From a virus: a stretch of DNA of 64,000 bases. Position numbers and translations under genes: made by a program. Below, in pieces: positions 6,052-37,286 of this stretch. The notes beneath the pieces are model-generated. The model ran no database searches, was not told the origin of the DNA, and saw only the letters and a list, made by a program, of their open reading frames with translations. Positions within the stretch are counted from its first letter, which is position 1. Each line of letters starts with the position of its first letter. Where the stretch lies: IMG/VR virus record IMGVR_UViG_3300045988_154248. One strand, 5' to 3'.

Positions 6052-6522
6052 GTGATTACAATCGCTAGATCTAAATTTAACGTAGATAAGGACACAAGCA
6101 AACGTACTTATAATAACATAACTTTTGATTCAATTTTAGAAATGAAATATTATCGAGATGTGCTTTGCCCATTAGTGGAGAGTGGCGATGTGGTGGATTA
6201 TGAATTACAGAAGCCATATGAGCTACAACCAAAGTTCAAACACGACGGAAAAACTGTTCAGCCAATAAAATATGTGGCTGATTTTTTTATTGTCTATAAG
6301 GATGGACATGAAGAAGTTATTGACACTAAGGGATGCCCTGACAGTGTTGCACTGATTAAAAGAAAACTATTCTGGTACTGCTATCCAGATGTTAACTATA
6401 AATGGATTTGTTATTCCAAGATCGACGGAGGATGGCAGGAATACGAGATCGTGAAAAAGAATCGGGCAGAAAGGAAACGTAAGAAAAAAGAAACTCAAGA
6501 GGTAAACAATGTACTCCAGTGA
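6052..6522 (+). CDS. DUF1064-like PD-(D/E)xK nuclease (RecU/resolvase-like)
   Basis: FDSILEMKYY...IKYVADFFIVYKDGHEEVIDTKG matches the FDS.E...Y / Y.aDF.v / D.KG pattern of DUF1064 proteins. Basic C-terminal tail. Confidence 0.55.
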   Translation: MITIARSKFNVDKDTSKRTYNNITFDSILEMKYYRDVLCPLVESGDVVDYELQKPYELQPKFKHDGKTVQPIKYVADFFIVYKDGHEEVIDTKGCPDSVALIKRKLFWYCYPDVNYKWICYSKIDGGWQEYEIVKKNRAERKRKKKETQEVNNVLQ

Positions 6523-7877: not shown

Positions 7878-10718
7878 ATGCCAAAACAACATACAATTAA
7901 CCTCGAAGCTGTTATAAAAGCTGCACTGGATAAAAATAGCGAAAAAATAATCGATGATTTTGAGAAGAAAATCACTGAACCAAAAGAGATTAATATCAAA
8001 ACAGATAAAGCATCTAAACAGGTTAAGAAGCTGTCTGATGAGATTGAAAAAGAACAAAAGAAACATACTCAAACGTCTAGAAAAAGAAATAAAACTAAAA
8101 CAGCTACTGAACAAAGTACTCCAAAAAACGCAGATAAGTATGTACAATCAACAATATATGATAAAAAAGGACGTCCATCTACTTCTCATTCGTATACGTA
8201 TGCTGATGGAAAACAACAATCTTATAACAAGAATGGTAAGTTAACATCTGAGAAGCAGACCGTTGTTGATCTTCAAAAAGCATATTCTCAGTTAAATAAA
8301 GACGTAACAGAATATTATTCATTAAAGACAAAAGAAGCAAAAGGCAAAGTAGCCACAGAGGATAAACAGTATGTTAAAGGTCGGATTTCTGATTTAGTTA
8401 ATGAAATGTCTGCAAACCGAAAATATATTGCAGATGTAAAAAAGCAAGGTTTTTACAATGATGAATTGGAGCAAAAAGCTTTTAATCATTTTCGTAGAAA
8501 AGCTAATGGCTACAACACGTATGTCGATGAGAAAAATGCTACAATCAAAGCTTATGGAAATGATGACAATACTGCTATTCGTCAGGGACAGCGTTCGAAA
8601 CAACTAAGTAATTATGCTGGACAATCCACAGATGCAATTGAAAGAGCAAGAACGCTTGATACAACTATAACAGGTTTGGAAAAAGAATTATCAAACCTTG
8701 TTTCTTCTGGCGCATCAATGGATCAAATTAAGTCAAAATTTGATGAATGCACTTCTGCTGGTAAAGAATTTAAAAATGTCATGACCCTAGTCAATAGCAC
8801 TATGGAGAAAACATCTAAAAAAGATACCGTTGTTGGAGATTCAAATGCCGCAAAGCTTCAAAATGCCATTGATAAAAAAGTAGCTCAAGCAAAAACACTT
8901 GTATCAGATAGTTCTATAAAACAATTTGACGCAAAAATTGAAAAGATTAAATCTCAGTACGCTGGACAAGATGGTTCTGCAGACGTTTTATCATCTTTAG
9001 AAAAAACAGTGAATACCATACATGACAAACAGGCTAGTATAAAAGCAGAATTAGCAAAAGGATCTTCTGGAAATTTAACACAAATTGCTTCGGATGCTGA
9101 TATTTTGAATGCAAAGCTTAATGAAGTTGAAACTACCGCGAAAACGCTTGGAACTTCACTTTCAAAAAATCTAGATGGTACCACACTTCAGAGAACTATT
9201 GATAAAATTGATAATCTTGTAAAAAATTCCGACGGTTTTGCAAGCAAATCGCAATTAGAAAAATTAAAAACTCTACGAGATTCTTATACTAATAGTGATT
9301 CTGGAATTACAAAAGCTGTCAACTATGATAATTCTAAAATTATTTCTGGCATCGAGCAGGAAATTAATGCTCGTAAAAAATTAGCAGAAGCTCAGAAAGA
9401 ATTGCAAACTGGTACATATTCTGCGAATGAAGCCAATTATAAAAATGCTCTTTCCAAATATGAAGGGCAAACTTCTGAATCTCTAACTCGTGCAAGAGAA
9501 AGTTTAAAACAATTCAAAGAGATCCGTGAAGACTTTGAAAAGTCTATGAAAGACATTAAGGTTTCTGATCTTAGTGACGAAGAGTTTGAACGTTTAAGTA
9601 AGAATCTTCAGAATATGACTGAAGAGGAAGAAAAATATAAGACAGCGATGAAACAGGTCAAGGCAGAGGAAACTGCTACTCTAGCACCTGGTGTCGCCCT
9701 TCGTGCGTCAAACGAGATGCAGTCTTATATTAACAACAACAGCAAGGCATGGAAGAAATATAAGGCACAACTCGAAGAAGTTCGTGATGCCTATAAAAAT
9801 GTAACAACAGAAGGACAAAAGTTAGAAGTTGACGCTAAAGCTAGGGATTTGAAAGCAAAAATTTCTGCTGATGGATTAACAGGTGCAAGTTTTTGGCAAG
9901 ATACAAAACGTGCTGTTAATCAAATTGCTCAATTCACTGGAATTTACGGCATGTTGCAGAATGTCGTTATGGAAATTCCATCAAAGGTTGTTTCTAATGT
10001 AAAGGAAATTAATGATGCTCAAATTGAATTAGCAAAAGTTGCAAGTGATGCATCGGAGAGTCAATTAAGTCAGTACTGGGATAAGGCTGCTGAAAGTGCC
10101 AAGAAATATGGTGCTACAGTTAGTGATGTAATTAGCAGTACTGCGGATTGGAAACGTCTCGGAGCTTCTCTTGATGACGCAAAAGAATTGTCTGACATGA
10201 CTACTCTTCTGCAACGTGTCGGAGATAACATGACCCAGGAAACATCCTCTTCTGGTCTAATTAGTGCATTGAAAGGTTTTCAACTAAAAGCAGATCAAGC
10301 ACAACATATCGTAGATGTGGCAAATGAGGTAGCCAATACGCAGCCTATTGATACAGCAGGTATTTTTGAAGCAATTGAAAGATCTGCATCATCTCTAAAA
10401 GCCGCTGGCAATACGTATGAACAGGGTGTTGCGCTTGCCAGTGCAGCGAATAGTGTAATTCAAAATCCGGAAAAAATCGGGACAGCACTAAAAACGATCT
10501 CAATGCGCATAAGAAGCGCCGAAACAGATCTTGAAGAAGCCGGTCTTGACACTGAAGGAATGGTAACTTCTACTGCCAAGCTTCGAAAAGAAATGCTTGC
10601 ACTTAGTGGCGTAGATATTCTGAAAGACAAAGATACTTTTAAGTCTACTTATCAAATTCTTGATGAGTTAGCAAATAAATGGTCTGATTTAACAGACATC
10701 CAGCAGGCAGACTACACT
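7878..10718 (+). CDS. tail tape-measure protein, coding segment 1 of 4
   Basis: AAAGGTGGTGA SD then ATG. Coiled-coil N-terminus, then a TP901-type TMP core (ADWKRLGASLDDAKELSDMTTLLQRVGDN...GTALKTISMRIRS...WSDLTDIQQA). The frame runs into a stop 27 nt after the conserved sequence ends. The 3' boundary is approximate. Confidence 0.75.
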
Positions 10719-11109
10719 TGCCTGTATGTACAGAAATGTGCATAAGAGAACACATCTAAAACCAGTAAAACCTAATGCTCTATCACTACAATATGGATGA
10801 AACATGCTGATATGAATGTAACGAAAGTAAAACAACGATAGAGATTCTATATGGTCAAAAGCCTAAGTAGAAATTTTGCTAATTATTTTAAATTAGAAAT
10901 GGTAGCTTGGTCGCAAAGTCCCGAATAGGGATGTGTCAAACGAGTACCCCAACGTCAGGGGGGAGAAATCCTTAATGTAGGGCTTAATCGCTAAATGAAG
11001 TCTGAAATGGTGTGACTGCTATTATTCTTAAGATGAATAATGTGGTTAAAAAGTACTCTGATCTTATATGCGAGTATAAGAATTATTATTGAAAAGAGAA
11101 TTTTATTTT

Positions 11110-11286
11110 ATGAAAAAATTTGATAAAGAATACAGTACTCAATACGTACCTGAGATGAAATATCTTCAATCAAAAGGTATTGAATATTCTTTTGTAAAAG
11201 ATATTCAAGGAGTGACGACATATAAATATACGAAGACACCAGAGTTATTTTTGGCTTTGGTGTCTTTTTATATGGAGAATAAATAA
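11110..11286 (+). CDS. small conserved phage protein, paralog of 3270..3455
   Basis: See 3270..3455. Located inside intervening sequence 1. Confidence 0.5.
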   Translation: MKKFDKEYSTQYVPEMKYLQSKGIEYSFVKDIQGVTTYKYTKTPELFLALVSFYMENK

Positions 11287-11319
11287 AAATACGAAAGGAT
11301 AAATAATAGGTGATAAATA

Positions 11320-12687
11320 ATGGCAAGACAAAAATATACATATGAACAAGTTTACAATGAATTTGACAAAAGAGGTTATGATTTAGTATCAGAAGAATAC
11401 CATAACGTTTCTGAACATCTGGAATATATCTGCAGAAAACATAAAGACAAAGGTATCCAGAAGATAACATTTTCAAAACTTCATTCAGTGAATAGAGGTT
11501 GTTATTATTGTGGTAGAGAACGAACTGAAAATGCGCATGTGAAAGAATTAGATCCTGAATATGACAAACAATTGTGTGAATCGAAAAATTTTACATATAT
11601 TGGATCGAGAAAAGAAAATCATATTTTTGTTATTGATTTTATTTGTAATAATCATAAAGATCTTGGGATTCAGTCTATGCGTCGCAATAATATGAAAAGG
11701 CAAATTAAAGGATGTCAGTATTGTTCAGGGAAAAATTTACCAGAATGGTATATTATGAAAAAGAAAGATGAAGTAAATCCAAATATTATATTAATTGATC
11801 CATATAAAAACATGACTACAAGAATGAAATGTCTTTGCAAGAAACATAATTTTTTGCATAATAAAACCATGCAGGAAATTTTAGGTGGAAAAGGTTGCTA
11901 TTATTGTGGTCTTGAAAAACTAAGTAAACAAATGTTTTTGTCAGATGATCAAGTCAATGAAAATATTCATAAGAAAAATCCACATGTTGATGTTATAAAA
12001 TATAATGGCGCAGATATTATTTCTGAATGGTACTGTAATAAGCACCAAAAATCATTCAGTAAGTGCTATGTTACTTTGCTTTATTGTGATAGTGGATGCG
12101 ATGAATGTTATAAAGAATTAATTAGAGATAGATATGGTTTGGGTCAGTTAGAGTTTAAGAAAAAAATAAAAGAAATTCATCCAACATTACAAGTTATAGG
12201 CAAATATATAAATAATACCACTCCAGTAGATTTATATTGTCAAAAACATGATTGTTATTTTTCAACAGATCCATCTTCTGCATACAAAAGATTATCTTGT
12301 TGTCCTAAATCTAGAGTCACTTATAAAGAAGAATATGTATGTAGTTTGTTAGAAAAATGGGGTTATTCTATTACTAGACAAAAGAAATTTGATGACTGTA
12401 AGGATAAAAACGTTCTTCCGTTTGATTGTTATTTAAATGATTTTAATGTATTGGTGGAATATGATGGAGAAGGGCATTACAAACCTGTAATGTTTGGAGA
12501 AGAATCCTATGAAGAAGCCGTAGAAAAATTTCATTATACGCAAAAACATGATCAAATGAAGAATGAATATTGTGAAGTAAATAATATTCCTCTTATTAGA
12601 ATTCCTTATTATGAGTTCGATGATGTAGAATATTATCTATATGATAATTTATGTAAACTTGGTGTTATAGAAGAAAATTTTCAATAA
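11320..12687 (+). CDS. intron-encoded endonuclease candidate (zinc-ribbon repeats plus Vsr/DUF559-like PD-(D/E)xK domain)
   Basis: Four to five repeats of the pattern C.KH......(G)C..C (CRKHKDKG...GCYYCG; CNNHKDLG...GCQYCSG; CKKHNF...GCYYCG; CNKHQKS...GCDEC; CQKHDC). C-terminal FDCYLNDFNVLVEYDGEGHY...NIPLIRIPY resembles Vsr-like nucleases. Confidence 0.55.
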   Translation: MARQKYTYEQVYNEFDKRGYDLVSEEYHNVSEHLEYICRKHKDKGIQKITFSKLHSVNRGCYYCGRERTENAHVKELDPEYDKQLCESKNFTYIGSRKENHIFVIDFICNNHKDLGIQSMRRNNMKRQIKGCQYCSGKNLPEWYIMKKKDEVNPNIILIDPYKNMTTRMKCLCKKHNFLHNKTMQEILGGKGCYYCGLEKLSKQMFLSDDQVNENIHKKNPHVDVIKYNGADIISEWYCNKHQKSFSKCYVTLLYCDSGCDECYKELIRDRYGLGQLEFKKKIKEIHPTLQVIGKYINNTTPVDLYCQKHDCYFSTDPSSAYKRLSCCPKSRVTYKEEYVCSLLEKWGYSITRQKKFDDCKDKNVLPFDCYLNDFNVLVEYDGEGHYKPVMFGEESYEEAVEKFHYTQKHDQMKNEYCEVNNIPLIRIPYYEFDDVEYYLYDNLCKLGVIEENFQ

Positions 12688-12747
12688 TAATTGGTATAGC
12701 TTTAAGCGAGGGCTATATTAACAAAAGAAATATGAAGTGTAACTGAG

Positions 12748-13083
12748 TTGATCGCCGGTAAAAATCAAGGCAATGTAATGAGCGCCCTTATGAGCCAGTA
12801 CGATATTGCTCGTCAAGCGCTTAATACTGCTATGAATGATTCCGAAGGCTCCGCCGAAAGGGAATTAACTAATTACCAAAAGGGTATCGATTACAGTCTT
12901 GAAAGATTCAAGGCTACATTTCAAGAATTTTCAACTTCTGTTCTATCATCAGACACTTTCAAGGCTGTCATAGATAGCGGAACACAATTCTTAGAAATTC
13001 TTACTAAAATTACTGAAACACTTGGGCCACTTGGCACAGCTTTAACAGCACTTGGTGGTTTCAAATTTATATCAAGCATAGGT
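12748..13083 (+). CDS. tail tape-measure protein, coding segment 2 of 4
   Basis: LIAGKNQGNVMSALMSQYDIARQALNTAMNDSEGSAERELTNYQ is the canonical continuation of the TMP core. No SD or credible start of its own. Confidence 0.7.
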
Positions 13084-13904
13084 TAGCCAAAATCCTGGCT
13101 ATAGTTTATCGTAAACTGGCTTATCAATGCGGAGAATATCATAGCAATGGAATGATATTTCAACGTAGGGAGATTAGTGCTTGTAAAAAATAAATAGAGG
13201 ATTAATTCGTCGAATTCGCTATTCTGCAATAATGCAGTGAAATGGATGAAAATTCCGCGAGAACGCACGAGCCAACCTGACTACGTATAGTAATATGTGA
13301 AACGTTAGCAGCAATTATGGAATTAAAGATAATATCATAATGACGAGCGAAACATATGAAAGTTAGGAGGAGTAGAGAGAACACCCTTCCTCCAGCGTAT
13401 ATAATGCCATAGTTTATATGCGTTGAATGCATGTTCCACGGTACGCGAAAGTTGTGATGCTTTCTCATCACACGCCAGCTTCTATCCTATTTCTGGCGTT
13501 GTTGGAAAATAATAGGAAAATTATATAGATATTTATCGTCAAATTACAATAACAATGGGGGATGTGAAAGTATGGGATCTAAATCTAAATTAGTATTTGA
13601 AACATTAGAATCTGATCCAGATGGTATTATTGATGCAAGCGAGCAAATATTAAATGTTCAAGGTACTCAGTTTTTACCGTTTACCTGAAATGTGCCAGTA
13701 AACATTGCATTGAGGAGAGTATGGAAATACAACTTCCCAGCACTCTCCTCTTCCACTTCTATAACATTTTCAACAAAAATGCCACAAAGAATAACAACGC
13801 TATCGCCCACCAGGGCCATGGCTGCATACTTCTTCTGACTCTACCTTTCCATGACATATCTTTTATTTTTTCCTTTGTCTAAAAATAAGTTTTAATGAAA
13901 GCAG

Positions 13905-14228
13905 GTGATTATTATCAATATTCAGCAAACAGCAAACAAGATAGAAACAAGAATTGTGTCTTCAGATAAATTAAATTCACAAAATATGTCATATGTATAT
14001 ATTGATTCAGATAATCAAATATATGTACGAGAAGGAATACTGCAGAATGATATTGATATATTATCTGCTGTATTAATGCAAAGAAAAGTCGATAGTCGTA
14101 TTAAAAAAACATATTTTGATATTGTAGACTCATTGAAAACGAATCAAGTATCTAAAAATCAATTTGAGTCTCTATATAAGATGGTTCTTGTAAAATATTA
14201 TGGTAAGAATGAAGAAAGTACATTGTAG
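13905..14228 (+). CDS. small protein convergent with protease 1 (MIIINIQQTANK N-terminus)
   Basis: 107-aa ORF behind an AGCAGGTGAT SD. Its first ~12 codons and 5' flank are repeated at 14887-14923. The 3' end overlaps the protease ORF by 31 nt. Confidence 0.4.
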   Translation: MIIINIQQTANKIETRIVSSDKLNSQNMSYVYIDSDNQIYVREGILQNDIDILSAVLMQRKVDSRIKKTYFDIVDSLKTNQVSKNQFESLYKMVLVKYYGKNEESTL

Positions 14229-14866
14229 TTTTCGCATTCTCCAAGACCAACTTCTTTTTCTTTATATGAATAGCTTGATTGTTCAATCCCTACTAAATAA
14301 TATTGGCTATCACGATTAATAAATATCGGTGATCCGCTTGATCCACTAAAGCATTCCATATCCACAAGGAAACGTTCCAATCCATTAAATTTTGATTTTA
14401 GAGGTGTCGCAATAACGCCACTTCGAATAAGTGGAGTGATAAAATTATCAGACTGAAATGATAACGGATATCCAATCATTAACGCATATTCAATTGAAGA
14501 TATTGGAAAATCTTCCGTTATAATATCTTCTTTTGTAATCCAAGATATTTTTAGCTTTCCTACATATTCTGGTGAATCGATTAGATCATTTATTCCAATT
14601 ACTGCAACGTCATATTGTGGATGTAAATATGGTTGGATACGTATTTCATTGTTTAGAAGATTCACTTGATCGTTTTGCTCAATAGGGACAGAAAACAAAG
14701 CGTTTTTCATATTCTCAAATATATGCCTATTCGAGACTAATGCATAATTTTCTCGATTATTTGCATGGTATTTATAGAAAAATCCTGTACCAATTTTACA
14801 TTCATCATTTTCTTTTAATACAGTAATTTTTGTTACAGTATGAATCAAATTCTCTTTTGTAAGCAT
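14198..14866 (-). CDS. trypsin-like (S1/chymotrypsin-fold) serine protease 1
   Basis: AAGGAGAAG SD. His in LVSNRHIF, Asp in YDVAVIGI, Ser in FSGSSGSPIF (GxSGxP). Confidence 0.7.
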   Translation of the reverse strand: MLTKENLIHTVTKITVLKENDECKIGTGFFYKYHANNRENYALVSNRHIFENMKNALFSVPIEQNDQVNLLNNEIRIQPYLHPQYDVAVIGINDLIDSPEYVGKLKISWITKEDIITEDFPISSIEYALMIGYPLSFQSDNFITPLIRSGVIATPLKSKFNGLERFLVDMECFSGSSGSPIFINRDSQYYLVGIEQSSYSYKEKEVGLGECENYNVLSSFLP

Positions 14867-14894
14867 ATTTTACTTCTCCTTAATTAGAAAGCAG

Positions 14895-15236
14895 GTGATT
14901 ATTATCAATCAAACAGCAAACAAAACAGATCATCAGGAATCTATACAAACAATACACACAATAGAATTAACCACTAATGAGTATAATACAATCAAATATT
15001 TTTTTGAAAATATGGAGTCTTTATATAACTATGGACTGATTGATAAGGAAATTGTCCCATATAAAATTTTCTCCAATGCAAAAAATCATTTTATGAAAAA
15101 GCCAAAAATTACAATTACTAATTTAAAAATGACAAAAGCTTCAGATACTATTACTCATCTAGTTTGTGGTGATCAAAGTGTTAAATCTGTTTATCAAATA
15201 GCTACTTCTCCGTCACAAGAGGATATTGTTCTCTAA
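14895..15236 (+). CDS. small protein convergent with protease 2 (MIIINQTANK N-terminus)
   Basis: 113-aa ORF behind the same AGCAGGTGAT SD repeat. Overlaps the protease 2 ORF by 35 nt. Confidence 0.4.
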   Translation: MIIINQTANKTDHQESIQTIHTIELTTNEYNTIKYFFENMESLYNYGLIDKEIVPYKIFSNAKNHFMKKPKITITNLKMTKASDTITHLVCGDQSVKSVYQIATSPSQEDIVL

Positions 15237-15936
15237 TAAAATCAAGTATATAAAACGCATATACTTCCTGAGAAAGACCAAGACTTTCTTCATACTTCTT
15301 TTCAAATTCGTCTGTAGTAATTTTAAGAGAACGTATTTTAGCAGAATGATGTATGCCAAGTAGTTTGTATTTTTCATTAACTTTGATATAAACTGGGCAT
15401 CCACTTAAACCTTCTTTGGTATTGGCATAAGTGAAGAATCCGTTTTGAAAGTTGAACTGAATAGATGATGCAGTATTTCCTTTAATAATAAAAGGATACG
15501 CTAAGATTGTGTACCCTAATGCTGCTTGATAGCCAACGAGATAGACATCTTCCAAATCATTAAAACTTGATCTGTCATCATTTAAAATAATGTCTGATTC
15601 TTCTATAAAATGAAAAATTATATTGTATTTATTCAAGGCCTTGATTATTGTATTTGTTATATCGACATAGGCGATATCAAGAGAAGGATGTTTTATAGGA
15701 GAGACAGTTATATTAAAAGTTATACCTGACATTTCTTCGTTTTCGTCTATAGTGGATATAACAAAAGATATATTCATAATATTTTTGTCAAAACAATGAC
15801 CGCAAGAACAAAGGAAATATGATTCTCCTTGAGATGTTGCTAATTTTATGATAAAACCAGTAAAAGAGTGTCTTGGTTCTTCAGTATTATCAGCAATAAA
15901 TACTGTTGTATATTTCAAGTCATTTACACTAATCAT
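15202..15936 (-). CDS. trypsin-like (S1/chymotrypsin-fold) serine protease 2
   Basis: GAGAGGAAAA SD. His in SCGHCF, Asp in LDIAYVDI, Ser in EGLSGCPVY. Confidence 0.65.
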   Translation of the reverse strand: MISVNDLKYTTVFIADNTEEPRHSFTGFIIKLATSQGESYFLCSCGHCFDKNIMNISFVISTIDENEEMSGITFNITVSPIKHPSLDIAYVDITNTIIKALNKYNIIFHFIEESDIILNDDRSSFNDLEDVYLVGYQAALGYTILAYPFIIKGNTASSIQFNFQNGFFTYANTKEGLSGCPVYIKVNEKYKLLGIHHSAKIRSLKITTDEFEKKYEESLGLSQEVYAFYILDFIREQYPLVTEK

Positions 15937-15969
15937 ATCAATTTTCCTCTCTTATGTTTTATGGTTATC

Positions 15970-16533
15970 TTAAAAATCATACCCACAATTCTTACAGTGA
16001 AATTGTTTGCCGATTTTCTCTGATGCAATGCCAAACATATTTGTAGACAGCATACGTTTGAATATACCGATTTTCTCGATATTTGTAGATTGACACACTG
16101 GACAGTGAGGTTGGTTGGCAGATGTTGGATTTTGATAGTTGTTCTTTTCTCTATATTGTTTTAACCGCTCTTCTTCTTCATGACGTCTTTTGTTATATGC
16201 ATTCTCATCAAATTGATTTTCCACATTAAGATCTTTTAGGTCATTAAGAATGCTTTCTTTGTCACACCCGTGATGATTTAACAAATCTACCATTTCATAC
16301 TTAGTTTGTATAAATGGAACGCGACAATATTTACAGTTAACTCTTCTACAATGACCAGCATAATTAATTTCATGAACCCCACATCTCGGACAGATAAAAC
16401 CTCTAGTAAAATCATTAATATTATTTTCTTCTAGATATTTTTTGATTGGTCGTCCACAATGAGGACAAGTTTCAGCATAGATGCTAACTTCTCTATCACA
16501 ATCTGGGCAATATATCAAATTTTGAAATCCCAT
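15970..16533 (-). CDS. multi-zinc-ribbon protein
   Basis: GGAGGA SD then ATG 16533. Four CxxC pairs (CPDC..CPHC, CPRC..CKYC, CPVC..CKNC) separated by an acidic/basic linker. Confidence 0.55.
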   Translation of the reverse strand: MGFQNLIYCPDCDREVSIYAETCPHCGRPIKKYLEENNINDFTRGFICPRCGVHEINYAGHCRRVNCKYCRVPFIQTKYEMVDLLNHHGCDKESILNDLKDLNVENQFDENAYNKRRHEEEERLKQYREKNNYQNPTSANQPHCPVCQSTNIEKIGIFKRMLSTNMFGIASEKIGKQFHCKNCGYDF

Positions 16534-16620
16534 ATTACATCCTCCAATGCACATTAAATTAATTACATTATATCATAATTATTATATAAATCCAACATTA
16601 TACAATAATTTTATTCGCAG

Positions 16621-19600
16621 TTAAAAAATTTAGGTGATTTATTTGGTAGTTTTGGAGAATTAAACTTACTGAGAAATAAATATGGAAAAAACGCAACATT
16701 TGATACATTAAGCAGTACACTACAACAGTCTTTTAACGAGTCTTTTAAAGTTGGGAAAAATGGAATTAGTGAATTTTCCACAGAGCAAATTAAAACTAAA
16801 GCATCTGTAATGGGATTAAATGATGCGTTGACAAAACAAGCATTATCTCTTGCGAATGACGCTGGTTTATATCAAAAAGCTGCGGCAGGTAATCTTACAT
16901 TTAGTAAGGCTATAGAATTAAATATAAATAATGCAAGCGATTTAGTTGATGCCTTGATGAGTAGTAATTCTGAAGTCTTAAAAAAATATAAAGATAACGA
17001 TATTGCTGATATGATAGCTAATTCAGGTGAAAAAGGCAGCGCGGCATATAATGAGTTTGTTAAAGATCTCATCGATAAAAATCAAGATTTAGGGGACTCA
17101 ATCGTTGAATTAGCACCCAAAGTAGAAACTACAAAATCCGCATTTTCTGGTTTATCAAACTATTTTAAAGGACTTTTTGCTACATTTACAAATCCGATTT
17201 TCCTTTTAACGACAGCCGTTACCGTAGGGGTTGCGGCATGGCAAGGCTATAACCAATCTGTCCAGGAATCCATCCAGCACACGAAAGACTCAATAGCAGA
17301 AATAGAGGAACGTAATAAGTCTATTGACGACAATATCAGTAAAGCACAGGAACTAAGGGATTCCCTTGATTCCGGTACTCTTACAGAGCAAGAAGCTTAT
17401 AACACGAAGAGTCAATTGCTTGATATCCAAAGTCAATTATCTGATTCTTATGGAGAACAGGCGGATGGAATTGATCTGGTAAATGGTAAGCTGGATGAGC
17501 AGATCGAGAAGATGCAGCAGCTCAAAGTTGAAAATGCGAAAAGCTGGCTGAATGATTCGGATAATGAGAAGAATTACGAAAAAGCTAAGAAGAAGATGAC
17601 CAAAGATGATTATGAGTCATTCTTTGGAAATACACCTACTTTATCTTTACTTGGTAATGCACCAGAAAAAGCCGACTATACAAATTCAGACGTATATAAA
17701 GATGCACTGAAACGTTATCAAAATAGCAAATCCCAGATCGAAGAAATCCAGAAAGCAGCAGAAAAAGCCGGACTAAAACAGTATACAAGTACAAGCACAG
17801 GTCAGTTCCAGCTTGGTTTTGAAAATGAAACAGTAACAGGAGCAGATGAAAAATTAAACTCCTTCCTCGCTACTGTTAAAGAACTGAAACGGCAGTTTGA
17901 TGATGAGGGTAAAAATACTGATTACTTTGATAATATCATCAGTTCCGCCGAAGATGCCGAATCTTCTTATAAGGATATTTTAGACAAGCATCAAGAAGTA
18001 TATCAAGAGTATCTGAAAAACTCCATGCTTGCAGAGGGTTATGGTAATAATAAGCCAGCCACAGTATACCAGCAATATGCGGATGCTGTAGATAAATATA
18101 ATGAAGCCCTGCAAAGTGGAGATACATCTAAGGTCGAAGCAGCGAAAACTGCATTAGATGGCGTAAAAGATTCCGTAGATAATATTGTCAGTAGAGATTC
18201 CGGAAAAAAATACAAGGAACTGTTTGATGAGATTGCAGATGGTATTGACACAGCATCCGAAAAAACTTATGAGTTCAAAGAACGCTTATCCGGTAAAGGT
18301 ACAGATAAATTAAACAATACTGTGCTTTCTAAGCTCAAAGAGTTGAAGAATTACACAGATATTGACCTCAAGAGTATCAATCTTGATACAAGTGATGTTG
18401 TTGCTGGTAAAGATGCTCTACGCATGGCAGTAAACGAAGCAATGGATCTTGACATTGTTTCCGATGATTCTGCTGAAAGTGTGGCAAAAGTTGTTGATCT
18501 CTTAACGGATATGGGTATGACGGCAACCGTATCCATGAATCAAGTGGATGATTCCTTCTCAGAAGTCAATACTACCATTCAGCAAGCACAAGCAAATCTG
18601 GAAACGCTCAAGACGATTATGTCTGAATCTGTTTCGGGAGCAGGTATTTCTGCCGATAATGTGAAAGCATTTAAAGAAATGTTCGGAGATGATGCTGCGC
18701 GTGCTTTGGAGAAAACCGCAGACGGTTACCATATCAATCGTGAAGAGCTTGCAAAATTACAGGCGCAACAGTCAGAAATGAACAAAGCGGATTATCTTTC
18801 CGGTTTGGCAGATCAGCAGGAAGCTCTGAGACAAATCGAGGAGCAGATCGCCGATGCAATGGTAAAAGGTCAAGATGTCAGCGGCTTACAGGCACAGCGC
18901 GAAGGTATTTTGGATAATATTTCCTCTCTGGAGGATCTAGCATATCAGTATCAAACTGCTACTTCTGCTTATCAACAATGGCAGGATGCTATGTCCGGTG
19001 GTGAAGAAGGTAATATGTATGATTCCATCCAGGGTAACATGGAATCCATCAAAGATCTCTACGACAAAGGACTTGTGGGAGAAAACAAATTCCGAGAGTT
19101 TGTTGACCTTATGTCCAATAAGGATCTGACCAATGCCAGTGTGGATGAAATCGTTGCGGCTTATGAAGAATCCTATCCGAAGATGGAACGTTATTTTACA
19201 GAAGGACAGGAAGGATGTCAAGCATTCTTACAAGATATATCCAACCTTAATTCTGAATGGGCGCACATGAATGAAGATGGTTCATGGGAGATTAATTTCG
19301 GAGTCGGAAACGATCAAGAGATTGCGGATGCATTAGGAATTGATGTGGAAGCTGTACAATCAGTACTAAGAAAACTGCATGATTTTGGCTTTGACATCGA
19401 CCTCGATCAGCCGGTTAAATCTTTGGAACAACTAAAGACAGAAGCTCAATCAGCCAAAGAAGCTCTTGATGGAATGGGTGAAACTTCTCTTGATAGCATC
19501 AATTTGGACACAGATTCATTCAGTGAAATCACAGATGATATTGACAAGGTTAAGGAATATATTCAGCAGATCAATGATGCTGATTTGGAGCCAGAAGTTC

Positions 19601-22492
19601 GGACAGAGAGACTGGAGCAAGCCAATAATATTCTTGATTATCTGGTACAGAAACAGCAAGAGGCTGGACATACAGATATTATCATTGATGCGGATGCAAG
19701 TTCTGTCGATCAAAAGATCTCTGATCTGAAGAGTCAACTGGAGCAATTCAGAAACGAAGACGGTACGATTCCTGTTAATGCCGATACACAAGATGCTGTC
19801 AACAGTCTGCAATCTTTGTATGCTACGAAGCAAAATCTTGAAAATACACCAGCTATTCTACAGGTTGATACTTCGCAGGTTGACGGAGAACTGGGCAATG
19901 CGATCGGAAAATTACAGGAATATCAGAATGCTGTAGAGATTCTGAATGCACAGAACACGATGAAAACACAGGGCATCGACATTGATACCACAGATGCACA
20001 GCAGAAAGTACAACAGTTGGCAGGACAGCTACAGAATCTTGATGCTGATACGACAGCAAAGTTAGGTCTTGACGATACTGATTTTCAGTCGAAACTTTCT
20101 AATATTGCTACTCATCCGATTGATGTAGGAATAGGGGTAAATCTTGATCCGAATGCTCTTGCCGACGTCTCTGCAAAGATTTCTGGAATTACGCCAGAAT
20201 TACTTGTAAAAGCTGGTGTAAACGAAGAGGCGATTGTAAATTATACGCCGAAAGATAAGGACGCTACGGTCAAATACAAAGTTGACCATAGTGCGATTGA
20301 CAGTTATGATCCGGAAGACAAAAATGCTACGGTTACTTACGGTGTGGTTGTTTCTGGACTTGAAAATCTACCAGGTAATAAAACAAGAAGTCTGACTTAC
20401 AATATTAAGACTAATGGTACGGCTCCAAAAGTAAATGGTACGGCACATGCTATAGGAACAGCTCATGCGGCAGGTACTGCAAGCCGTAATTGGGGGCTTG
20501 CTCACAATGAACCACATGCGCTTGTAAATGAATTGAAACCAGAAGCAATCGTTCGGGATGGTAAGGCGTTTATCTTGAATGGCGGAGATCCTACTTTTGC
20601 AAATCTGAAGAAAGATGATGTTGTATTCAACGGTGATCAGACGGAGCAGTTGCTTGAACATGGTTATGTTACCGGTTCTCATGCACAACTTGCAGGTGGT
20701 GGTTATTCTTTAGGTAGTGCGTTCTCTGGAGGATCGGGAAGATTTAATGTTGGAAGTTCTGGAACAAAAGCTGATTCTTCCACATGGGAAGACGAAAAGA
20801 AACAGAATAATACCAGCCCTAACTCATCTTCTGGTAGCAGTAGTCGTAAAAACAGTGGATCATCTTCTGGTGGTTCAACTCGATCACCTTCCGGTGGAAG
20901 TTCTGGTGGCTCTTCATCCTCTTCTGATGCAAAGTCAACAACAGAAGAAGTAGTTGATTTTATCAAAATTATGCTCTCCCGTCTGTCCCGTATGACAGAG
21001 CTTGCAACTAATGCAATCGAACGTGCAGTAGGTCTTGCAAATAAACAAGCAGCCGCAGCAGATGCAATCGGTAAAGCAACGAATGAAATGGTTCATAACC
21101 AACGTGCAGCAGATGCTTATTTGGCAAAAGCTAATAGCATTAGTTTGTCTGATGCTTATAAGAACCAGATCATGAATGGTAGTATTAATATAGATACCAT
21201 CACAGATGAAGATCTGAAAAAGAAAATTAGTGACTTCCAAAGCTATTATGAATCTTACTTATCTGCAAGAGACAATGCGTTAAAGCTCGAAGATAAAATT
21301 ACCGAACTCGCTGAAAAACGTCTGGAAATCATTGAAAAAGAATATGATGCGATCGTAGACATCAACGATGCGATAAAAACCGTAGCCGATTCCAAAATTT
21401 CTCTCAACGATGCGCTGGGCGTGGCGATTGACAATCCAGACAATTATGCTAATCTGAATAATTCAATCAAAGCACAGGAAGATACTTATAATCAGCTGAC
21501 GAAAAAGCTTTCCGATTATCAGAAAGAGATGGAGTCTCAACTTTCCAGCGGCTTGATGCAAAAGGGTTCTGATGCCTATAATTCTGCGCTAAAAAATATT
21601 CAAGATTTTACAGCTAAGATTTATGATGCTTCTACCAGCCTTCTTGAACTACGGGATAAATTGGATCAGATTAAAATTGATACTATCCAGAATGTAATTG
21701 ACGGAATCAAACGTAATTCGGATATTACGGAGAAATATATTTCTTACCTGCAATCTCAGAATCGTGATGTGCCAGAGAATCTATACACTGACCGTATAGA
21801 TAATAATAACGCTCAGGTACAGCAGAATCTAAAGCAGATGGAAATATACCGGAAGAAACAGGCGGTTCTTGATGTCAATTCTAAATCGTATCAAGATTAT
21901 GCAGAAAAGATTCAAACGCTAAAAGAAAATACTTTGGAACTGATTACGGACAATGAATCTCTTCAAGATAGTATCTATGAGCTACGATTTAAGCCACTTG
22001 ACGATGCTATCCAGAAGTACAGTGACCTTGAAGATGAGCTGAAAAGTTTCCGTGACCTTCTGAATGATGATGCATTCCTTGATAAGCAAGGACGTATCAC
22101 GGAAGATGGATTGGCACAGATTGCTCTCTTACAACAGAGTATTGGTACGGCAAAACAAAAAATTGCAGATTATACCACGGGCCTGCAAAAACTAAAAGAG
22201 TCTTATGACAATGGGGTTATTTCCTTAACGGAATATAATGACAAGTCAAAAGATTACCGTGAAGGTATTCAAGGTTCGATTGCAGATGTGAAATCATATC
22301 AGGACAGTCTGGTTGATCTGTATAAGAATGCTATGAGTACAGAGGTTGATTATCTAACCTCTATTGTAACGAAGAGACAAGAGGCGCTTCAAGCAAAAGC
22401 TGACTATTATTCCTATGATAAATCAATATCCAAAAAGAGCAATGATATTAATGTTATTAAAGCACAAATCATGGCTTTAGAAGGGGTGAAAT
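16621..22492 (+). CDS. tail tape-measure protein, coding segment 3 of 4
   Basis: The frame is open from 16609, upstream of the listed Met at 16810, and has no SD. Long coiled-coil with one TM-like segment (IFLLTTAVTVGVAAW), a Gly/Ser-rich stretch (20790-20930) and a conserved LVNELKPEAIVRDGKAFILNGGD block. The 3' boundary is approximate. Confidence 0.7.
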
Positions 22493-23075
22493 ATTTGCTC
22501 CTATAAAATCTATTTAATTGCGGGAAGTCCCCATAAGGTTTAATTGGCTACAACGTAACCAGAAACGGTAGGCGTGAATGCGGTAGAGTTTTAAACTTAC
22601 AGTCCATTATTAGATAGAAACCATAAAAATAATTAAACTAGGGATAACCGAGTGTGCAAGTCACTCAGACGCAGCGAACTTCCTAAGTCAGAAATGATAT
22701 GGAAGACGTTCAGAGACTAACCCATATTGGGTGGCGCAATGCCTTAATGGAAGACTGCAAGCGATTGGCGGTCGAAAAAATATAGACTATTTGAATATTA
22801 AGTGATATTATAATTTTGAGGTGTGTTCTTTCCTATAATTAGTGATGAACAGATAGAACACAGTGTAGATACAACCAAAGAGACTCTCGAACACACATAT
22901 GAGAGAAGTAAGTAGAAGAAAAGACAACGAAATAGAACAATAAAGAAGATTGTGCAAGTTTGTAGAAGTTATACGAACCATCGTTCGCATGTTTGTGAAT
23001 TTTGCGAATAGATTTTTCTCTTGGGATTGCATATAATAAAGTCAAGAAAACCGTAAAGTTTTCTTATAATTAGTG

Positions 23076-23174
23076 GTTACGAAGCCATAAAATCGTATTA
23101 ATAGATGTTACGAAGCATGTAAAAAATCGTATTAATAGATGTTACGAAGCATGTAAAAAATCGTATTAATAGCG
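23076..23174 (+). ncRNA. ToxI/antiQ-like antitoxin RNA: three tandem 31/34/34-nt repeats
   Basis: GTTACGAAGC(C/ATG)...AAAATCGTATTAATAGAT repeated head-to-tail at 23076-23106, 23107-23140 and 23141-23174, immediately upstream of the ToxN-like gene. Confidence 0.7.
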
Positions 23175-23197
23175 GAGCTGGTTACAGCTCCTTTATT
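23174..23197 (+). terminator. terminator between the antitoxin repeats and the toxin gene
   Basis: GGAGCTG-GTTA-CAGCTCC hairpin then TTTATT. This is the position of the attenuating terminator in toxIN/abiQ loci. Confidence 0.6.
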
Positions 23198-23213
23198 ACT
23201 ATTAGGAGAAAAT

Positions 23214-23774
23214 ATGAAGTGGATTAATGTAGACGAAAAGTATACAGATTATCTTAGAAGTCACGAAGGAAGAATTCCTATGACCAATTATGGCACAGAT
23301 AAATACAAGCCATTTTTCGGTGTGCTGTTTGAAACAAATGGTTTGTATTATATTACACAGGTATCACATCCACGGGAAAAACATAAACGCTTGACACAAC
23401 AAAAAGATTTTTACAAAATATTTGATCCAGATAATACAACAAGATTAATAGCGGTTGTTAATCTTAATTACATGTTCCCAATTCCAAAAGAATGTACAAG
23501 TGCATTTGTTAAAAAGAATATAGGAACATATCGTACATTTAAATCAGAGAAAGCAAAAAGTCAATATATTAATTTGCTTGATAAAGAATTAAAAGTAATC
23601 AATAAAATGGATTTAGGAACAAAAGCATTGCAGTTGTATCATTTAAAATATACAGATCCTAACAGTACCGTTTCAAAAAGATGTATTGATTTTAAGGATA
23701 TGGAAAAATGGGCAAAGTTATATATTGAAACGTTAAATAATACAGAAACTACAGAACAACCCAAGGAGCAGTAA
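23214..23774 (+). CDS. toxN: ToxN/AbiQ-family type III toxin (endoribonuclease)
   Basis: MKWINVDEKYTDYLRSHEGRIP...KPFFGVLFETNGLYYITQVSHPREKH...IAVVNLNYMFPIP aligns with ToxN as I recall it: MKFYTISSKYIEYLKEFDDKVP...KAFIGIVLEIQGHKYLAPLTSPKKWH...LGLINLKFMIPI. AGGAGAA SD. Confidence 0.8.
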   Translation: MKWINVDEKYTDYLRSHEGRIPMTNYGTDKYKPFFGVLFETNGLYYITQVSHPREKHKRLTQQKDFYKIFDPDNTTRLIAVVNLNYMFPIPKECTSAFVKKNIGTYRTFKSEKAKSQYINLLDKELKVINKMDLGTKALQLYHLKYTDPNSTVSKRCIDFKDMEKWAKLYIETLNNTETTEQPKEQ

Positions 23775-23928
23775 ATCTACTGCTCTTTTCTTATACCTCA
23801 AATCTTAATTACAATCCCTCAAATAAAATTCAAATAGAAGATATAGTCCCATGCCATACGAAAGTATGGGGAGCAGTTATGCTCTTGTCCACGTAGCGAG
23901 TGGATGAAAAGAAAATGAAATAACCTCG

Positions 23929-25409
23929 ATGCTCAATCTCAAGTTAAGAAATTGAAGCAACAGCTTTCAGAAGCAGAGCAAGATTTAGCCGATACTAAGC
24001 GTGACCATGCAAATGATATGCAGTCTCAAGGTTACGATAAGCTCAGTGAAGATCTGAAAACTTCTCTTGATGATACCGAGTACGAAATTAGTCATAATGC
24101 TGACAAACAGCTTGAGATCATCAATTCTATGCTTGACAAAGCCGTGTCCTCTTATCAAGAAGCATATGGCAAAATCAACTCTATCATCAAAAATACTGGC
24201 TGGGTAGGTAGTACGGATTTTAACAATACCCAGTCTGATCTAAGCACAGAGACAGGTGTTAAGAATCAAAATTCCAACGCATCACAGTCTCAGTCCAGTG
24301 CAAATAAAAATCCATCCAGTACCGCATCTGGTACAAAAACTGATCCAATCAACAGTAATTCAAAAGCAAACAGTGATCTTGCGGATCAATTAGTTAAACC
24401 GGAAGATACAACGAATCGTAAGGTTGCGGAACTAAAGGTGTCTCCTACTTCTACTACACTGAAAGAGGGTAAATCCACAAGTATTACTGCTACAATCAGA
24501 CCGAACGATGCAGCTAATAAGACTCTTGCTTGGAAATCAAGTAATGAATCCATTGCTACTGTATCCAATGGTACGGTAAAAGCAAAGAAAGCAGGTTCCT
24601 GCACGATCACTGCTACTACTACTGACGGCAGCGGTTTATCTGCGAAAGTATCTGTTAAAGTCAATGCGAAACCAAAACCACCAAAGCCACAGCCGAAACC
24701 ACAACCAGCAAAAACTGGTGGAGATGGAATTCCTCGTGTTGGCGATGTCGTAACGTTCACAGGATCTTATTATAATGATTCCTGGGGTATGGCTCCAAAA
24801 GGTAGTAGATTTTCCGGTCAGCCTGGTGCTGTTGTTATTGACTCTTACACGGCTAGGGAATATGGCGGAAATGGACGTACTACTGGTGATTTTAAGATCC
24901 ATATCAAGAGTGCGCATGATCCTAATTATAGTGATCTTGGATGGGTGCGTCTTAGCCAGATTAGTGGTTATGAAAAGGGTACGGATCGTATTCATGGTGA
25001 TCAGCTTGTATGGACAAATGAAAATAAAGACACCAAACATCATGGCGTTTCAGAATTAATCTATCGCAAGAAAGATGGTGCTGTCCTTACACCTGTTCAA
25101 GATGGAGATTCTATTCTACCAGCAGATTTTGTAAGTAATTTGATTAAATTAAGTGCAATTGATCCTAAAGAATTCGGTATGAATGTAAGTACTACGCCAA
25201 ATCTGGTACAGACGAACATTCCTCAAAATATCAGCAATGTTGGAAATGTAACGGTAAAAAATCATTATGATTCATTACTCACAGTTGAAGGTAATGTTGA
25301 TAGGGATGCTCTGCCTGGATTACAGGAAATTCTTGAAAAGTCTTATCAGTATACAAGTAAACAGATCGTGAAAGATGCAAGAAAAGTTGGTATTAGACCA
25401 TCAAGATGA
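23929..25409 (+). CDS. tail tape-measure protein, coding segment 4 of 4
   Basis: The frame is open from 23919 with no SD. A coiled coil continues, then a Big_2-like Ig domain (VSPTSTTLKEGKSTSITATIRPNDAANKTLAWKSSNESIATV), a PKP linker and a C-terminal block typical of TMP ends. The 5' boundary is approximate. Confidence 0.7.
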
Positions 25410-32447: not shown

Positions 32448-32933
32448 ATGGCAAGTGATAAAATGTTAGGTAGTTTTGATCAAAAATCTGCACCAGAAGA
32501 TAATGATCTTTTGGTAGAATACGATGCTGCTGCATCGAAAGTTAAGAATGTGAAGTTCGGAGGTGTGTGGAACTGGATAGTTAAGAAATTGACATCCGCC
32601 GTAATTAATGAGTTACAAACATCAAGTAAGAATGTAGTGGGGGCTATTAATGAATTAAATAGTAAGAAAGCGATTTGCACCACTGGTTGGGAAAACGGTA
32701 ATGCAAAATCTATTTTTGAAATATTTTCGCCAACTTCTCCAAATGGTATTTATAGTTATTATAATATTAAAGATATTCCATTTTATCATTCTCCTACAGA
32801 TGCCTATGTAACAATAATAAAAGGACATGAGTTAATTATTGCTTTTAATGAACAGAGTATTTTTATAACAGGAAGTTCAAGAAATACATGGACAAAGGAA
32901 TGGCATTCTATCAAGCTTGGTATCCTATCTTAA
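32448..32933 (+). CDS. tail fibre / receptor-binding protein: constant N-terminus (to 32666) fused to the currently expressed variable cassette V1
   Basis: AAGGAGG SD then ATG. Constant part ...VVGAINELNSK ends exactly in the crossover motif AAATAGTAAG (32657-32666). V1 (32667-32933) ends ...RNTWTKEWHSIKLGILS. Confidence 0.75.
   Translation: MASDKMLGSFDQKSAPEDNDLLVEYDAAASKVKNVKFGGVWNWIVKKLTSAVINELQTSSKNVVGAINELNSKKAICTTGWENGNAKSIFEIFSPTSPNGIYSYYNIKDIPFYHSPTDAYVTIIKGHELIIAFNEQSIFITGSSRNTWTKEWHSIKLGILS
32657..32666 (+). repeat. crossover site 1 (end of the constant region)
   Basis: gaaTTAAATAGTAAGaaa, read as L-N-S-K in the fibre frame. Confidence 0.7.
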
Positions 32934-32941
32934 ATAGTAAG
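32932..32941 (+). repeat. crossover site 2 (direct orientation, head of cassette V2)
   Basis: tatCTTAAATAGTAAGaca. It supplies the TAA stop of V1 and, in the +1 frame, N-S-K of V2. Confidence 0.7.
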
Positions 32942-33664: not shown

Positions 33665-33803
33665 GATTTTTACGTGCATAGAAACGGGAATAATAGCTAT
33701 TGACTGCGGATTTAATTGGTTTATATTTTTCAAGTATTTGATGAGAGAATATGGGAATGTGGTAATAGAAATTGCCAAAATTTCCCAAGGAGGTAGGTTA
33801 ATA

Positions 33804-34802: not shown

Positions 34803-34956
34803 TTTTTATAAATAGTCTAATAAAAATACCCTTATTTTTTGATCGCCCATTGGACGGTCTATTTATCGTGTATGTATATATTGATATTTTGCAATTTTGT
34901 AGGTTGCATGTTTTTATTCTTGTATTTATATTAAATCCGCAGTCTATAGAATTATT

Positions 34957-35266
34957 TTAACCAAATAATAATCCATTCACTTTGTAAAAGGACTCCAATT
35001 TGGAGTTTCCGTTAAAAGTAATTTTACCCAAATCTGTATTAATAGCAATACTTGACGTATCGGTATTTGACGCAGTGAAAGAAAGTAGTTTCATAGACCA
35101 TTTTGTTCCATAATTGATAACAATCGAAAAATACACACCACTTCCAATATTACCGGAAATCAATAATAAACCGATAGCGGTGTCCGATATATTATATTTG
35201 ATCGTTGCTGTTTTGTCATTTATTGTCGTATTAACGTCTATTGGTTTGATTCTTGTCTTACTATTT
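34957..35266 (-). CDS. silent fibre C-terminal cassette A
   Basis: Minus-strand reading from the site: AAT AGT AAG ACA AGA... gives NSKTRIKPIDVNTTINDKTATIKYNISDTAIGLLLISGNIGSG...NGLLFG*, open in the N-S-K frame. No SD or start. Confidence 0.6.
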
Positions 35267-36975: not shown

Positions 36976-37006
36976 AATTAAAGTGAACGAAAATCTGGAA
37001 AATTCA

Positions 37007-37282: not shown

Positions 37283-37286
37283 TTAT

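Follow-up and report, generated by a model that had tools for sequence, protein, structure and literature searches.

The tape measure protein (TMP) gene at positions 7878–25409 of IMG/VR virus record IMGVR_UViG_3300045988_154248 is, in our reading, a single gene of 3,513 codons interrupted by three group I introns that are removed by splicing, and we put the probability of this at roughly 85%. The whole stretch of DNA analysed, 64,000 nucleotides (nt) long, is referred to here as the window. Splicing in vivo we infer from the anatomy and covariation of the introns, which, like the identities of the genes that they carry, were read directly from the DNA. An earlier note on this DNA had proposed that the gene was split into four segments by three group I intron-like elements, but overlooked that intron 1 contains a homing endonuclease gene, intron 2 several genes on the minus strand and intron 3 a ToxIN cassette.

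Four open segments were found on the plus strand (7878–10745, 12748–13086, 16609/16810–22506 and 23919/23952–25409), and each insertion between them starts with an in-frame stop or meets one soon after. These open reading frames (ORFs), together with matches to PF10145 and to the PHROG TMP family phrog_4211, confirmed the segments, the frames and the three insertions at the places originally claimed. Exon 1 (7878–10708) ends in CAG CAG GC, with a split alanine codon, and matches PF10145 and positions 239–832 of the phrog_4211 profile; exon 2 (12735–13083, 349 nt, beginning A AGT GTA ACT GAG) matches positions 837–942 of the same profile. Since the two matches follow one another in this way, segments 1 and 2 are adjacent pieces of one domain. 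Exon 3 (16618–22487, 5,870 nt, beginning CAG TTA AAA) is homologous to uninterrupted TMPs, namely those of Tsamsa, L018 and L047 (related contigs and loci are given here by L numbers), and the similarity covers a transmembrane stretch as well as a D-L-V-N-G-K-L-D motif. In exon 4 (23918–25409) the first A completes a GU|A valine codon, the frame opens at 23919, and a Big_2 immunoglobulin-like domain (Pfam) precedes the stop at 25407–25409. As had been noted, the later segments lack signals for independent translation: exon 2 has no Shine-Dalgarno sequence and is directly preceded by an in-frame TGA, whilst segment 3 is open from 16609 and has its first in-frame start at ATG 16810, leaving 63 open codons without a start.

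Homologues run through these junctions uninterrupted. In tblastn searches of GenBank phages the uninterrupted TMP of Bacillus phage Tsamsa (3,123 amino acids, aa) gave a single alignment across junctions 1 and 2, and both Brevibacillus phage Sundance and a human-faecal contig gave single alignments across junction 1; megablast of the region against GenBank phages gave no matches. Contigs L011, L014 and L015 are uninterrupted across junction 1, and for L060 and L061 the alignment crosses junction 3 with no gaps in 150 aa. The assignment of all four segments to a single TMP gene is thereby supported at the sequence level. With the junctions as corrected below, the spliced ORF measures 10,542 nt and encodes 3,513 aa in frame. 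The earlier claim of an in-frame sum stands, although its figure of 3,509 codons does not, the junctions then proposed giving 3,511 aa. The predicted junction peptides of the spliced product, a protein of about 390 kDa, are ...IQQASVTELIAGK..., ...FISSIGQLKNLG... and ...MALEGVNNLD....

Mapping of the spliced protein onto about 80 related loci, taken from IMG/VR contigs of roughly 60–200 kb, placed the interruptions of this family at residues ~762/765, 818/819, 853/858, 871–879, 944, 951/952, 993/994, 1060 and 3016. Residues 944, 1060 and 3016 correspond to junctions 1, 2 and 3, every listed site is uninterrupted in other members, and the family has at least eight distinct insertion sites. The same site can be empty, hold an ORF-less 439-nt intron or hold an intron with an endonuclease in different contigs. 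In IMGVR_UViG_3300029047_000006 (loci L025 and L064) one TMP gene has at least five interruptions, with insertions at 818/819 (311 nt, ORF-less), 993/994 (543 nt), junction 2 (4.5 kb) and junction 3 (1.5 kb), and at ~944 an ORF-less intron plus another 1.8 kb. Loci L004, L007, L015 and L051 also have more TMP interruptions than the window has. In hundreds of public assemblies, the TMP fragments are called as four to seven separate "genes".

Intron 1 (10709–12734, plus strand, 2,026 nt) is a group I intron of an IA2-like family, and its edges were set by comparing the three different introns found at junction 1, in the window, L017 and L013. In each the exon ends in CAGCAGGC, the next exon starts AAG(U/C)(G/U)U, the intron ends in G (G12734 in the window), and splicing yields AS(V/L)TELIAGK, ASVTELIAGK being restored exactly in the window; the intron is therefore placed at 10709–12734. 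The joined window sequence, ...DIQQASVTELIAGK..., has the same length and motif as uninterrupted homologues, of which the nearest read ...QQASLTELIAGK and ...QRASVTELIAGK. Three other junctions, 10718|12748 (the one first proposed), 10718|12745 ("DYTE") and 10713|12740 ("DLTE"), fail when the three introns are compared with uninterrupted alleles. Only 10708|12735 gives AS[V/L]TELIAGK in all three together with a terminal G and a canonical, adjacent arrangement of P10 and the P1 guide, so that the "DYT" residues previously assigned to the protein are intronic. The uninterrupted homologues are all one residue longer than the first proposal would make this one.

The guide strand of intron 1, GCCUG (10720–10724), pairs with the exon 1 end CAGGC (10704–10708) to form P1, and immediately 5′ of it ACACUU (10714–10719) pairs as P10 with AAGUGU, the first six nt of exon 2. 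The core comprises P3 (10751–10756/11009–11014, CACAUC/GGUGUG), P7 (10942–10946/11054–11058, GAGUA/UACUC), and P8 (11020–11027/11035–11042) and P9 (11063–11068/11075–11080) hairpins that differ from those of its family members. P10 covaries in the L017 and L013 introns, with AAGCGU/AUGCUU and AAGUUU/AAACUU where the window has AAGUGU/ACACUU. Relatives show GACUA/UAGUC in P7, a compensated double change, and one has CAUAUU/AGUAUG in P3; variants of P8 and P9 pair too. This covariation was read from a direct alignment of four family members, without a formal pair count. Kin of intron 1 at other TMP sites, and another junction 1 variant, share 72–91% nt identity over 150–370 nt. Some family members carry canonical UUCAACGACUA ... 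AAGAAAUAGUCU strings, and one relative matches the Rfam group I model RF00028 with 24.1 bits (E 0.0018). At the junction 1 site L004 and L007 have an otherwise identical, ORF-less intron of 439 nt from which the endonuclease cassette is absent.

Intron 3 (22488–23917, plus strand, 1,430 nt) is likewise a group I intron and IA2-like. The location first given was right, and its edges are here corrected to exactly these positions. As had been recognised, it contains exact group I "R" and "S" strings, GTTCAGAGACTA at 22708–22719 and AAGATATAGTCC at 23838–23849, which occur once each in the 64 kb. P1 pairs exon AGGGGU (22482–22487) with GCUCCU (22497–22502), placing a U22487·G22497 pair at the cleavage site, and the P10 strand (AAAUA/UAUUU, 22492–22496) abuts the guide on its 5′ side. 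P3 is formed by UCUAUUU (22509–22515) with AAAUAUAGA (22778–22786), P7 by G-GACUA (22713–22719) with UAGUC-C (23844–23849), and P8 by CUAUUUGAAU (22787–22796) with AUUCAAAUAG (23828–23837), which closes the cargo loop. Two hairpins lie between P7 and P3′, as in IA2 introns; P9 (23854–23869) has a GAAA loop, and two more hairpins are followed by the terminal G23917. The Rfam alignment placed P7′ at 22782, which we rejected, as AUAGACU there cannot pair with AGACUA and belongs to P3′.

Five sequence types of intron 3 were found among relatives. With the cargo removed, 99.7% of cells were paired across 13 sequences, and 21 of the 46 pairs had changed on both sides, whilst control structures slid by one to three columns gave 33–48% paired cells; P4–P6 of this intron were read by eye. 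P1 covaries with the exon (GGGGU/GCUCC, GGUGU/GCACC, UCGGU/GCCGA), and all four P1 variants pair.

Intron 2 (13084–16617, or to 16620 with the alternative 3′ end; plus strand, 3,534 nt) holds its ribozyme core at approximately 13084–13520. At the 5′ edge, 13083|13084, an in-frame UAG forms the first three nt of the intron; the 3′ end reads ...UUCG|CAG. P1 pairs exon AUAGGU (13078–13083) with the guide GCUUAU (13119–13124), with U·G at the splice site. The core further consists of P3 (GAGGA/UCCUC, 13197–13201/13388–13392), P4 (UUCGU/ACGAG, 5′ strand 13206–13210; UUCAU/AUGAG in L011), P7 (G-GAAC/GUUC-C, 13377–13382/13433–13437; GAGC/GCUC in L011) and P8 (13395–13403/13415–13423), as well as P2, P5, P5a, P6, for which three different sequence pairs were seen, and a P9 hairpin. 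Two other pairings were tried and rejected. GACUA 13273/UAGUU 13411 as P7 is not conserved and has its 3′ half in the P8 loop; UAGCC/GGCUA (13084–13101; UAGCU/AGCUA in relatives) as P1 would leave an in-frame stop in the exon, and is instead a hairpin in the P1 loop.

Ten sequences of three divergent types were counted for the intron 2 core. Of the cells, 96.5% were paired, against 30–43% for slid structures; 20 of the 64 pairs had changed on both sides, and P4, P5, P6, P7 and P8 each show compensatory changes. The P1 of relatives has UGGAU or UAGAU with GUCUA, the pair at position −2 being compensated and the U·G at the exon end invariant (10/10). Across 14 loci the first ~480 nt have ~98% identity, falling to ~70% in six others; L011 has diverged further still. 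The 3′ end is conserved among relatives. A different ribozyme, with canonical CAGAGACUA ... AUGUAUAGUCC strings, occupies junction 2 in L017 and L050. The donor at 13083 agrees with the earlier note, but G16617 is preferred to its acceptor, G16620. Both are in frame, and protein comparison cannot choose between them because only distant homologues are continuous at junction 2. G16617 is the more likely acceptor because UAAACUG (13112–13118), next to the guide and read as the P10 strand, is complementary to CAGUU(U)A, the conserved 3′ junction.

A guide that pairs with both exons, a terminal G, a P3/P7 core, compensatory changes and empty-site variants thus bear out the earlier identification of the insertions as group I introns in one TMP gene. 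Several observations nevertheless weigh against this reading. The Rfam search that the earlier note suggested was of little help to it: at the gathering threshold (50 bits for RF00028) there were no matches in the whole window or in seven related loci, and none of the three introns reached it. Intron 3 scored 19.7 bits (E 0.26 over 22478–22810), its core halves being separated by 1 kb of cargo in P8. RF00028 gave no match at E up to 10 for intron 1, for the intron 2 core (13050–13620), or for a junction 2 relative with canonical R and S strings. The note had described U at −1 and a terminal G for introns 1 and 2; the terminal G holds for both and the U for intron 2, but intron 1 departs from the U·G rule at the 5′ splice site, with C10708 paired to G10720. 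This C-G pair is kept in all three junction 1 variants. A related intron at another site, in L027, appears to have C-G too (junction re-derived). The intron 2 acceptor lies ~3.1 kb past the ribozyme core, beyond the antisense genes, and junction 2 has no close intron-less homologue to fix the nucleotide of its 3′ end. Sense-strand terminator-like hairpins, at the start of intron 2 (13084–13101) and within intron 3 (23174–23191 and, by eye, just after the toxin gene toxN), could produce truncated late transcripts unless read through, and ToxN, if active, might cleave the part of the pre-mRNA that contains its antitoxin RNA, toxI. The main uncertainties concern the intron 2 acceptor, read-through of the internal terminators, activity of the cargo and splicing itself.

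It is conceivable, though in our view unlikely, that only introns 1 and 3 splice, and that the junction 2 insertion is a fixed accessory island splitting the TMP, or a ribozyme relic, leaving an N part of ~1,060 aa that ends at UAG 13084, plus a C part. The stop followed by the terminator-like hairpin would suit such a split, as would the antisense cargo (3–7 kb in relatives), the lack of an Rfam match here and the age and wide spread of the interruption. Most relatives also have an in-frame TTG/ATG six nt 5′ of the exon 3 start that G16620 would give. The window, however, has TCG rather than TTG at this point, no Shine-Dalgarno sequence, and no start until 16810. Moreover, there is clear structural selection on the core, P1 changes in step with the exon and always has U·G at the exact exon end, the P10 strand can pair with the conserved CAG UU(U)A at the 3′ junction, and uninterrupted homologues continue through the site.

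We consider it very improbable that nothing splices and that the segments represent either independent genes or a pseudogene decaying in a defective prophage. The listing of the fragments as separate ORFs by public gene callers counts in favour of this idea. Segments 2–4, however, lack start codons with ribosome-binding sites, and junctions 1 and 3 split codons such that conserved residues are restored exactly. The frames are intact in dozens of divergent contigs of 60–200 kb, and extensive compensatory changes have preserved the helices of the introns, among them the ones formed with exon sequence. Removal at the DNA level, through site-specific excision or transposition, or ribosome bypassing in place of RNA splicing, would be the least probable explanation of all. 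Integrase and transposase-like genes do lie elsewhere in the window, and there is short inverted complementarity near the insertion ends; no recombinase, however, was found within or beside the insertions, and the end complementarity amounts to P1 and P10 with a single internal guide. The conserved cores show the topology of group I introns (a P3/P7 pseudoknot, a terminal G), and insertions of 1.4–3.5 kb far exceed known translational bypassing.

Under the group I reading, the late transcript would pass through all three introns. In each, the internal guide would pair with the end of the upstream exon (P1), the nt directly 5′ of the guide would pair with the 5′ end of the next exon (P10), the P3–P9 core would fold, and two transesterifications would excise an intron ending in G and join the exons in frame. 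Intron 1, with its homing endonuclease in a loop after P9, represents the classical selfish arrangement. Intron 2 has its whole ribozyme in the first ~450 nt, followed by accessory genes that would be read from a promoter-like site at its right edge. The cargo may be expressed independently, as from a prophage or in the early phase of infection, and may act in abortive infection, inter-phage competition or addiction, the intron providing a harmless site within an essential gene.

The cargo of intron 3 has all the parts that make up a type III toxin-antitoxin system, with function predicted from that layout. The P8 loop (~1 kb) contains, in order, a promoter-like region, a toxI-like antitoxin RNA array (23076–23172, plus strand; 2.9 copies of a 34-nt unit, Tandem Repeats Finder score 168, 100% matches), a terminator-like hairpin (23174–23191, plus strand), a ribosome-binding site, a ToxN/AbiQ-family toxin gene (23214–23774, plus strand, 186 aa) and a second terminator-like hairpin. 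The toxin matches the full profile of Pfam PF13958 (E 6e-43), AbiQ of PADLOC (E 5.5e-21) and the solved ToxN structure PDB 4ATO (E 3.5e-8). An identical ToxN is indexed in 270 blocks of public assemblies, and in each of the eight places shown it stands between one and the same pair of TMP fragments. The arrangement can therefore be called neither a chimera nor a rarity. A tblastn search of GenBank phages with ToxN gave one weak match, a Clostridioides phage-plasmid.

Relatives carry different genes in the same P8 loop: a PBECR4 nuclease, an NYN RNase (PADLOC HEC-09), a PemK/MazF toxin, a 188-aa protein behind a promoter-like leader of the window type, or an endonuclease of 427–500 aa. In some an endonuclease and a toxin occur together with a duplicated P3′/P8 strand. 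Upstream tandem repeats were looked for beside the toxins other than ToxN and not found. Hybrid junction 3 introns occur in L074 (6549–9509), L071 (3729–7062) and L087 (ENA ERZ1310764), where a compact-type 5′ core, P8 5′ strand and endonuclease gene are followed by a second P3′/P8 5′ strand of the window type and then the toxin cargo (the 188-aa ORF, PemK/MazF or ToxN). These look like recombination or co-conversion products of two intron types. The 188-aa cargo of L062 and L065 has a window-like leader and hairpin (L062 7090–7275; compare window 23028–23213), and after these come ~130 nt of non-coding sequence free of repeats, then a terminator hairpin and a ribosome-binding site. This layout resembles a type III toxin-antitoxin system but lacks tandem repeats.

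Intron 2 carries ~3 kb of mostly antisense cargo. Its minus-strand genes encode a trypsin-like peptidase of the defence candidate family PDC-S45 (14198–14866; PADLOC PDC-S45 E 4e-40, Pfam Trypsin_2, phrog_7688 E 1e-32), a second, diverged PDC-S45-like peptidase (15202–15936; PADLOC PDC-S45 E 7e-19, phrog_7688) and a zinc-ribbon protein (15970–16554; Pfam zinc-ribbon matches). A minus-strand promoter-like site (16624–16597) overlaps the 3′ splice site. In relatives the whole junction 2 insertion measures 3.1–7.1 kb and its gene sets vary, including a SocA/Panacea domain, a PD-Lambda-2_B-like HTH-M78 protein, DUF4145, DUF5067 and more zinc-ribbon proteins, and it always ends with a minus-strand zinc-ribbon gene and a promoter-like site on the 3′ junction. 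Zinc-ribbon homologues were found at its right end in 12 of the 12 loci examined (16 copies).

Small plus-strand ORFs at 13905–14228 and 14895–15236 have similar N-termini (MIIIN..QTANK) and no family matches; each runs towards one PDC-S45 gene and overlaps its 3′ end. The same pairing was seen in L007, L023, L025 and L026, and these ORFs may be partner genes of the peptidases. Within the intron 2 core, a terminator-like hairpin on the minus strand (13255–13270), the complement of P5/P4 strands, could halt antisense cargo transcripts before they leave the intron. The junction 2 arrangement reaches distant relatives, as L001 (MT837120.1, 5090–7667, from a Mexican faecal virome) has a 38%-identical TMP ORF that ends at the junction 2 position, followed by a GNRA-rich non-coding stretch and a minus-strand zinc-ribbon homologue at the contig end.

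In intron 1, the loop of the hairpin after P9 contains a homing endonuclease gene (11320–12687, plus strand, 455 aa) that matches phrog_559 "HNH endonuclease" (E 3e-51), phrog_9084 "homing endonuclease" and phrog_7140 "intron encoded nuclease". A 65-codon ORF (11089–11286, plus strand) lies 5′ of it.

The window has a G+C content of 34%, and the TMP region forms part of a structural module, with head and tail genes 5′ of the TMP and distal-tail, host-recognition and endolysin genes 3′ of it. Relatives of the TMP are held by Lachnospiraceae, Oscillospiraceae and Clostridiales genomes, including a 298-kb isolate contig. The source is taken to be a large siphovirus-type phage of human-gut Clostridia. 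A tyrosine integrase (33603–34802, plus strand; phrog_1, E 8e-50) lies between tail genes at 26576–32392 and 37860–40619, in an area with ORFs at 32448–33937 and an adjoining 2.5 kb (34802–37287) without any ORF of at least 120 aa. This could be a further inserted element, or else the integration module of the phage itself, oddly placed. Because of the integrase and of the TMP relatives in Clostridia genomes, a temperate lifestyle is plausible. Adjacent minus-strand genes at 45872–48807 match "DNA transposition protein" and "transposase" PHROGs (phrog_296 and phrog_310, E 1e-32), which suggests a Mu- or Tn7-like transposition module within the phage genome. Amid the structural genes just 5′ of the TMP, there is a 156-aa ORF (6052–6522, plus strand) with matches to "Holliday junction resolvase / endonuclease" PHROGs (phrog_190, E 1e-40), which could encode a free-standing nuclease of the homing type. 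At 63614–63625 on the minus strand, AAGATATACTCC is one base off the group I "S" consensus, with a TACTC variant as in intron 1 P7′; an Rfam E-value scan of 60500–64000 gave nothing. A tail of ~0.5 μm, as the ruler rule would give, is an extrapolation.

More broadly, the TMP group I introns of this gut Clostridia phage family, a widespread one, may be exchangeable carriers for toxin-antitoxin, abortive-infection and defence-type genes, a proposal to which we would give even odds. If it is true, the P8 loop would be a slot for interchangeable small RNase toxins and the 3′ extension of intron 2 an antisense island of 3–7 kb; the ribozyme would neutralise insertion into an essential gene, homing could spread the cargo between phages, and late transcription or splicing could be coupled to the toxin-antitoxin balance of ToxIN. 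If the cargo is active, the introns would offer phages a route to gain or swap competition or defence genes with essential genes undisturbed. Questions then arise as to how the ribozymes tolerate inserts of 1–7 kb, internal terminators and antisense transcription, and whether processing by ToxN of the antitoxin repeats in the pre-mRNA affects splicing. Since gene callers fragment the TMP in public assemblies, inferences of tail length and host range for these abundant gut phages will be wrong unless introns are modelled.

Introns in TMP genes have precedents. Group I introns occur at three positions, IVS1–3, in the TMP genes of B. cereus-group prophages (Tourasse and Kolsto, 2008; PMC2504315), and the TMP of Vibrio phage ICP1 has an intron with an HNH endonuclease whose splicing was demonstrated by RNA-seq and RT-PCR (PMC10448857). 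With three TMP intron positions already published (PMC2504315), and at least five interruptions in one relative described here, the earlier note's description of three introns as unusual was overstated. The present introns share with both systems the TMP host gene, alternative sites near the conserved minor-tail domain, the presence or absence of a homing endonuclease, and a mechanism, here predicted, of group I splicing. They differ in that two of the three carry non-endonuclease cargo (ToxIN and antisense defence-candidate genes), in the length of the 3.5-kb intron (up to 7 kb in relatives), and in having at least eight sites in the family and at least five interruptions in one genome.

Group I introns of the IA2 class are well known from phages, in T4 td, nrdB and nrdD/sunY, in the SPO1 DNA polymerase gene, and in Twort orf142, which has three. 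Introns 1 and 3 resemble them in the P7.1/P7.2-type hairpins between P7 and P3′, in a GNRA-capped P9, and in the GUUCA(G/A)(A/C)GACUA and AAGAUAUAGUC consensus or a compensated variant of it. The ORFs loop out from peripheral helices, and the position of the intron 2 cargo 3′ of the core recalls sunY. In contrast, intron 1 has C-G in place of U·G, intron 2 has a diverged core, in which P7 is GAAC/GUUC and the canonical R and S strings are lacking, and the Rfam gathering score is reached by none of the three. To our knowledge, antisense multi-gene cargo is not a feature of phage IA2 introns.

The cassette of intron 3 resembles ToxIN and AbiQ-antiQ (PF13958; 2XD0, 4ATO) in its ToxN family, in the upstream array of 2.9 34-nt units, in the terminator between the two and in the A-rich tract of the repeat. 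It differs in lying in a phage rather than on a plasmid or chromosome, within the P8 loop of a group I intron of a structural gene. With the cassette inside the intron, both the late pre-mRNA and the excised intron also contain the antitoxin repeats and the toxin mRNA.

As far as we know, the group I introns of bacteria and phages usually either have no cargo or encode a homing endonuclease, and in the literature searched we saw no report of such introns together with ToxN, defence systems or toxin-antitoxin cargo. Phage genomes have accessory or defence islands whose position is fixed and whose content varies, known as prophage "morons" and defence hotspots. The introns described here resemble these in having variable cargo at a fixed position, with promoter-like sites and often on the opposite strand to the late genes, but the position is the interior of a self-splicing-type intron within an essential gene rather than an intergenic site. 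The TMP introns themselves are of an ordinary, established class; what is new is the exchangeable toxin and defence cargo, the long antisense-bearing intron and the density of intron sites.

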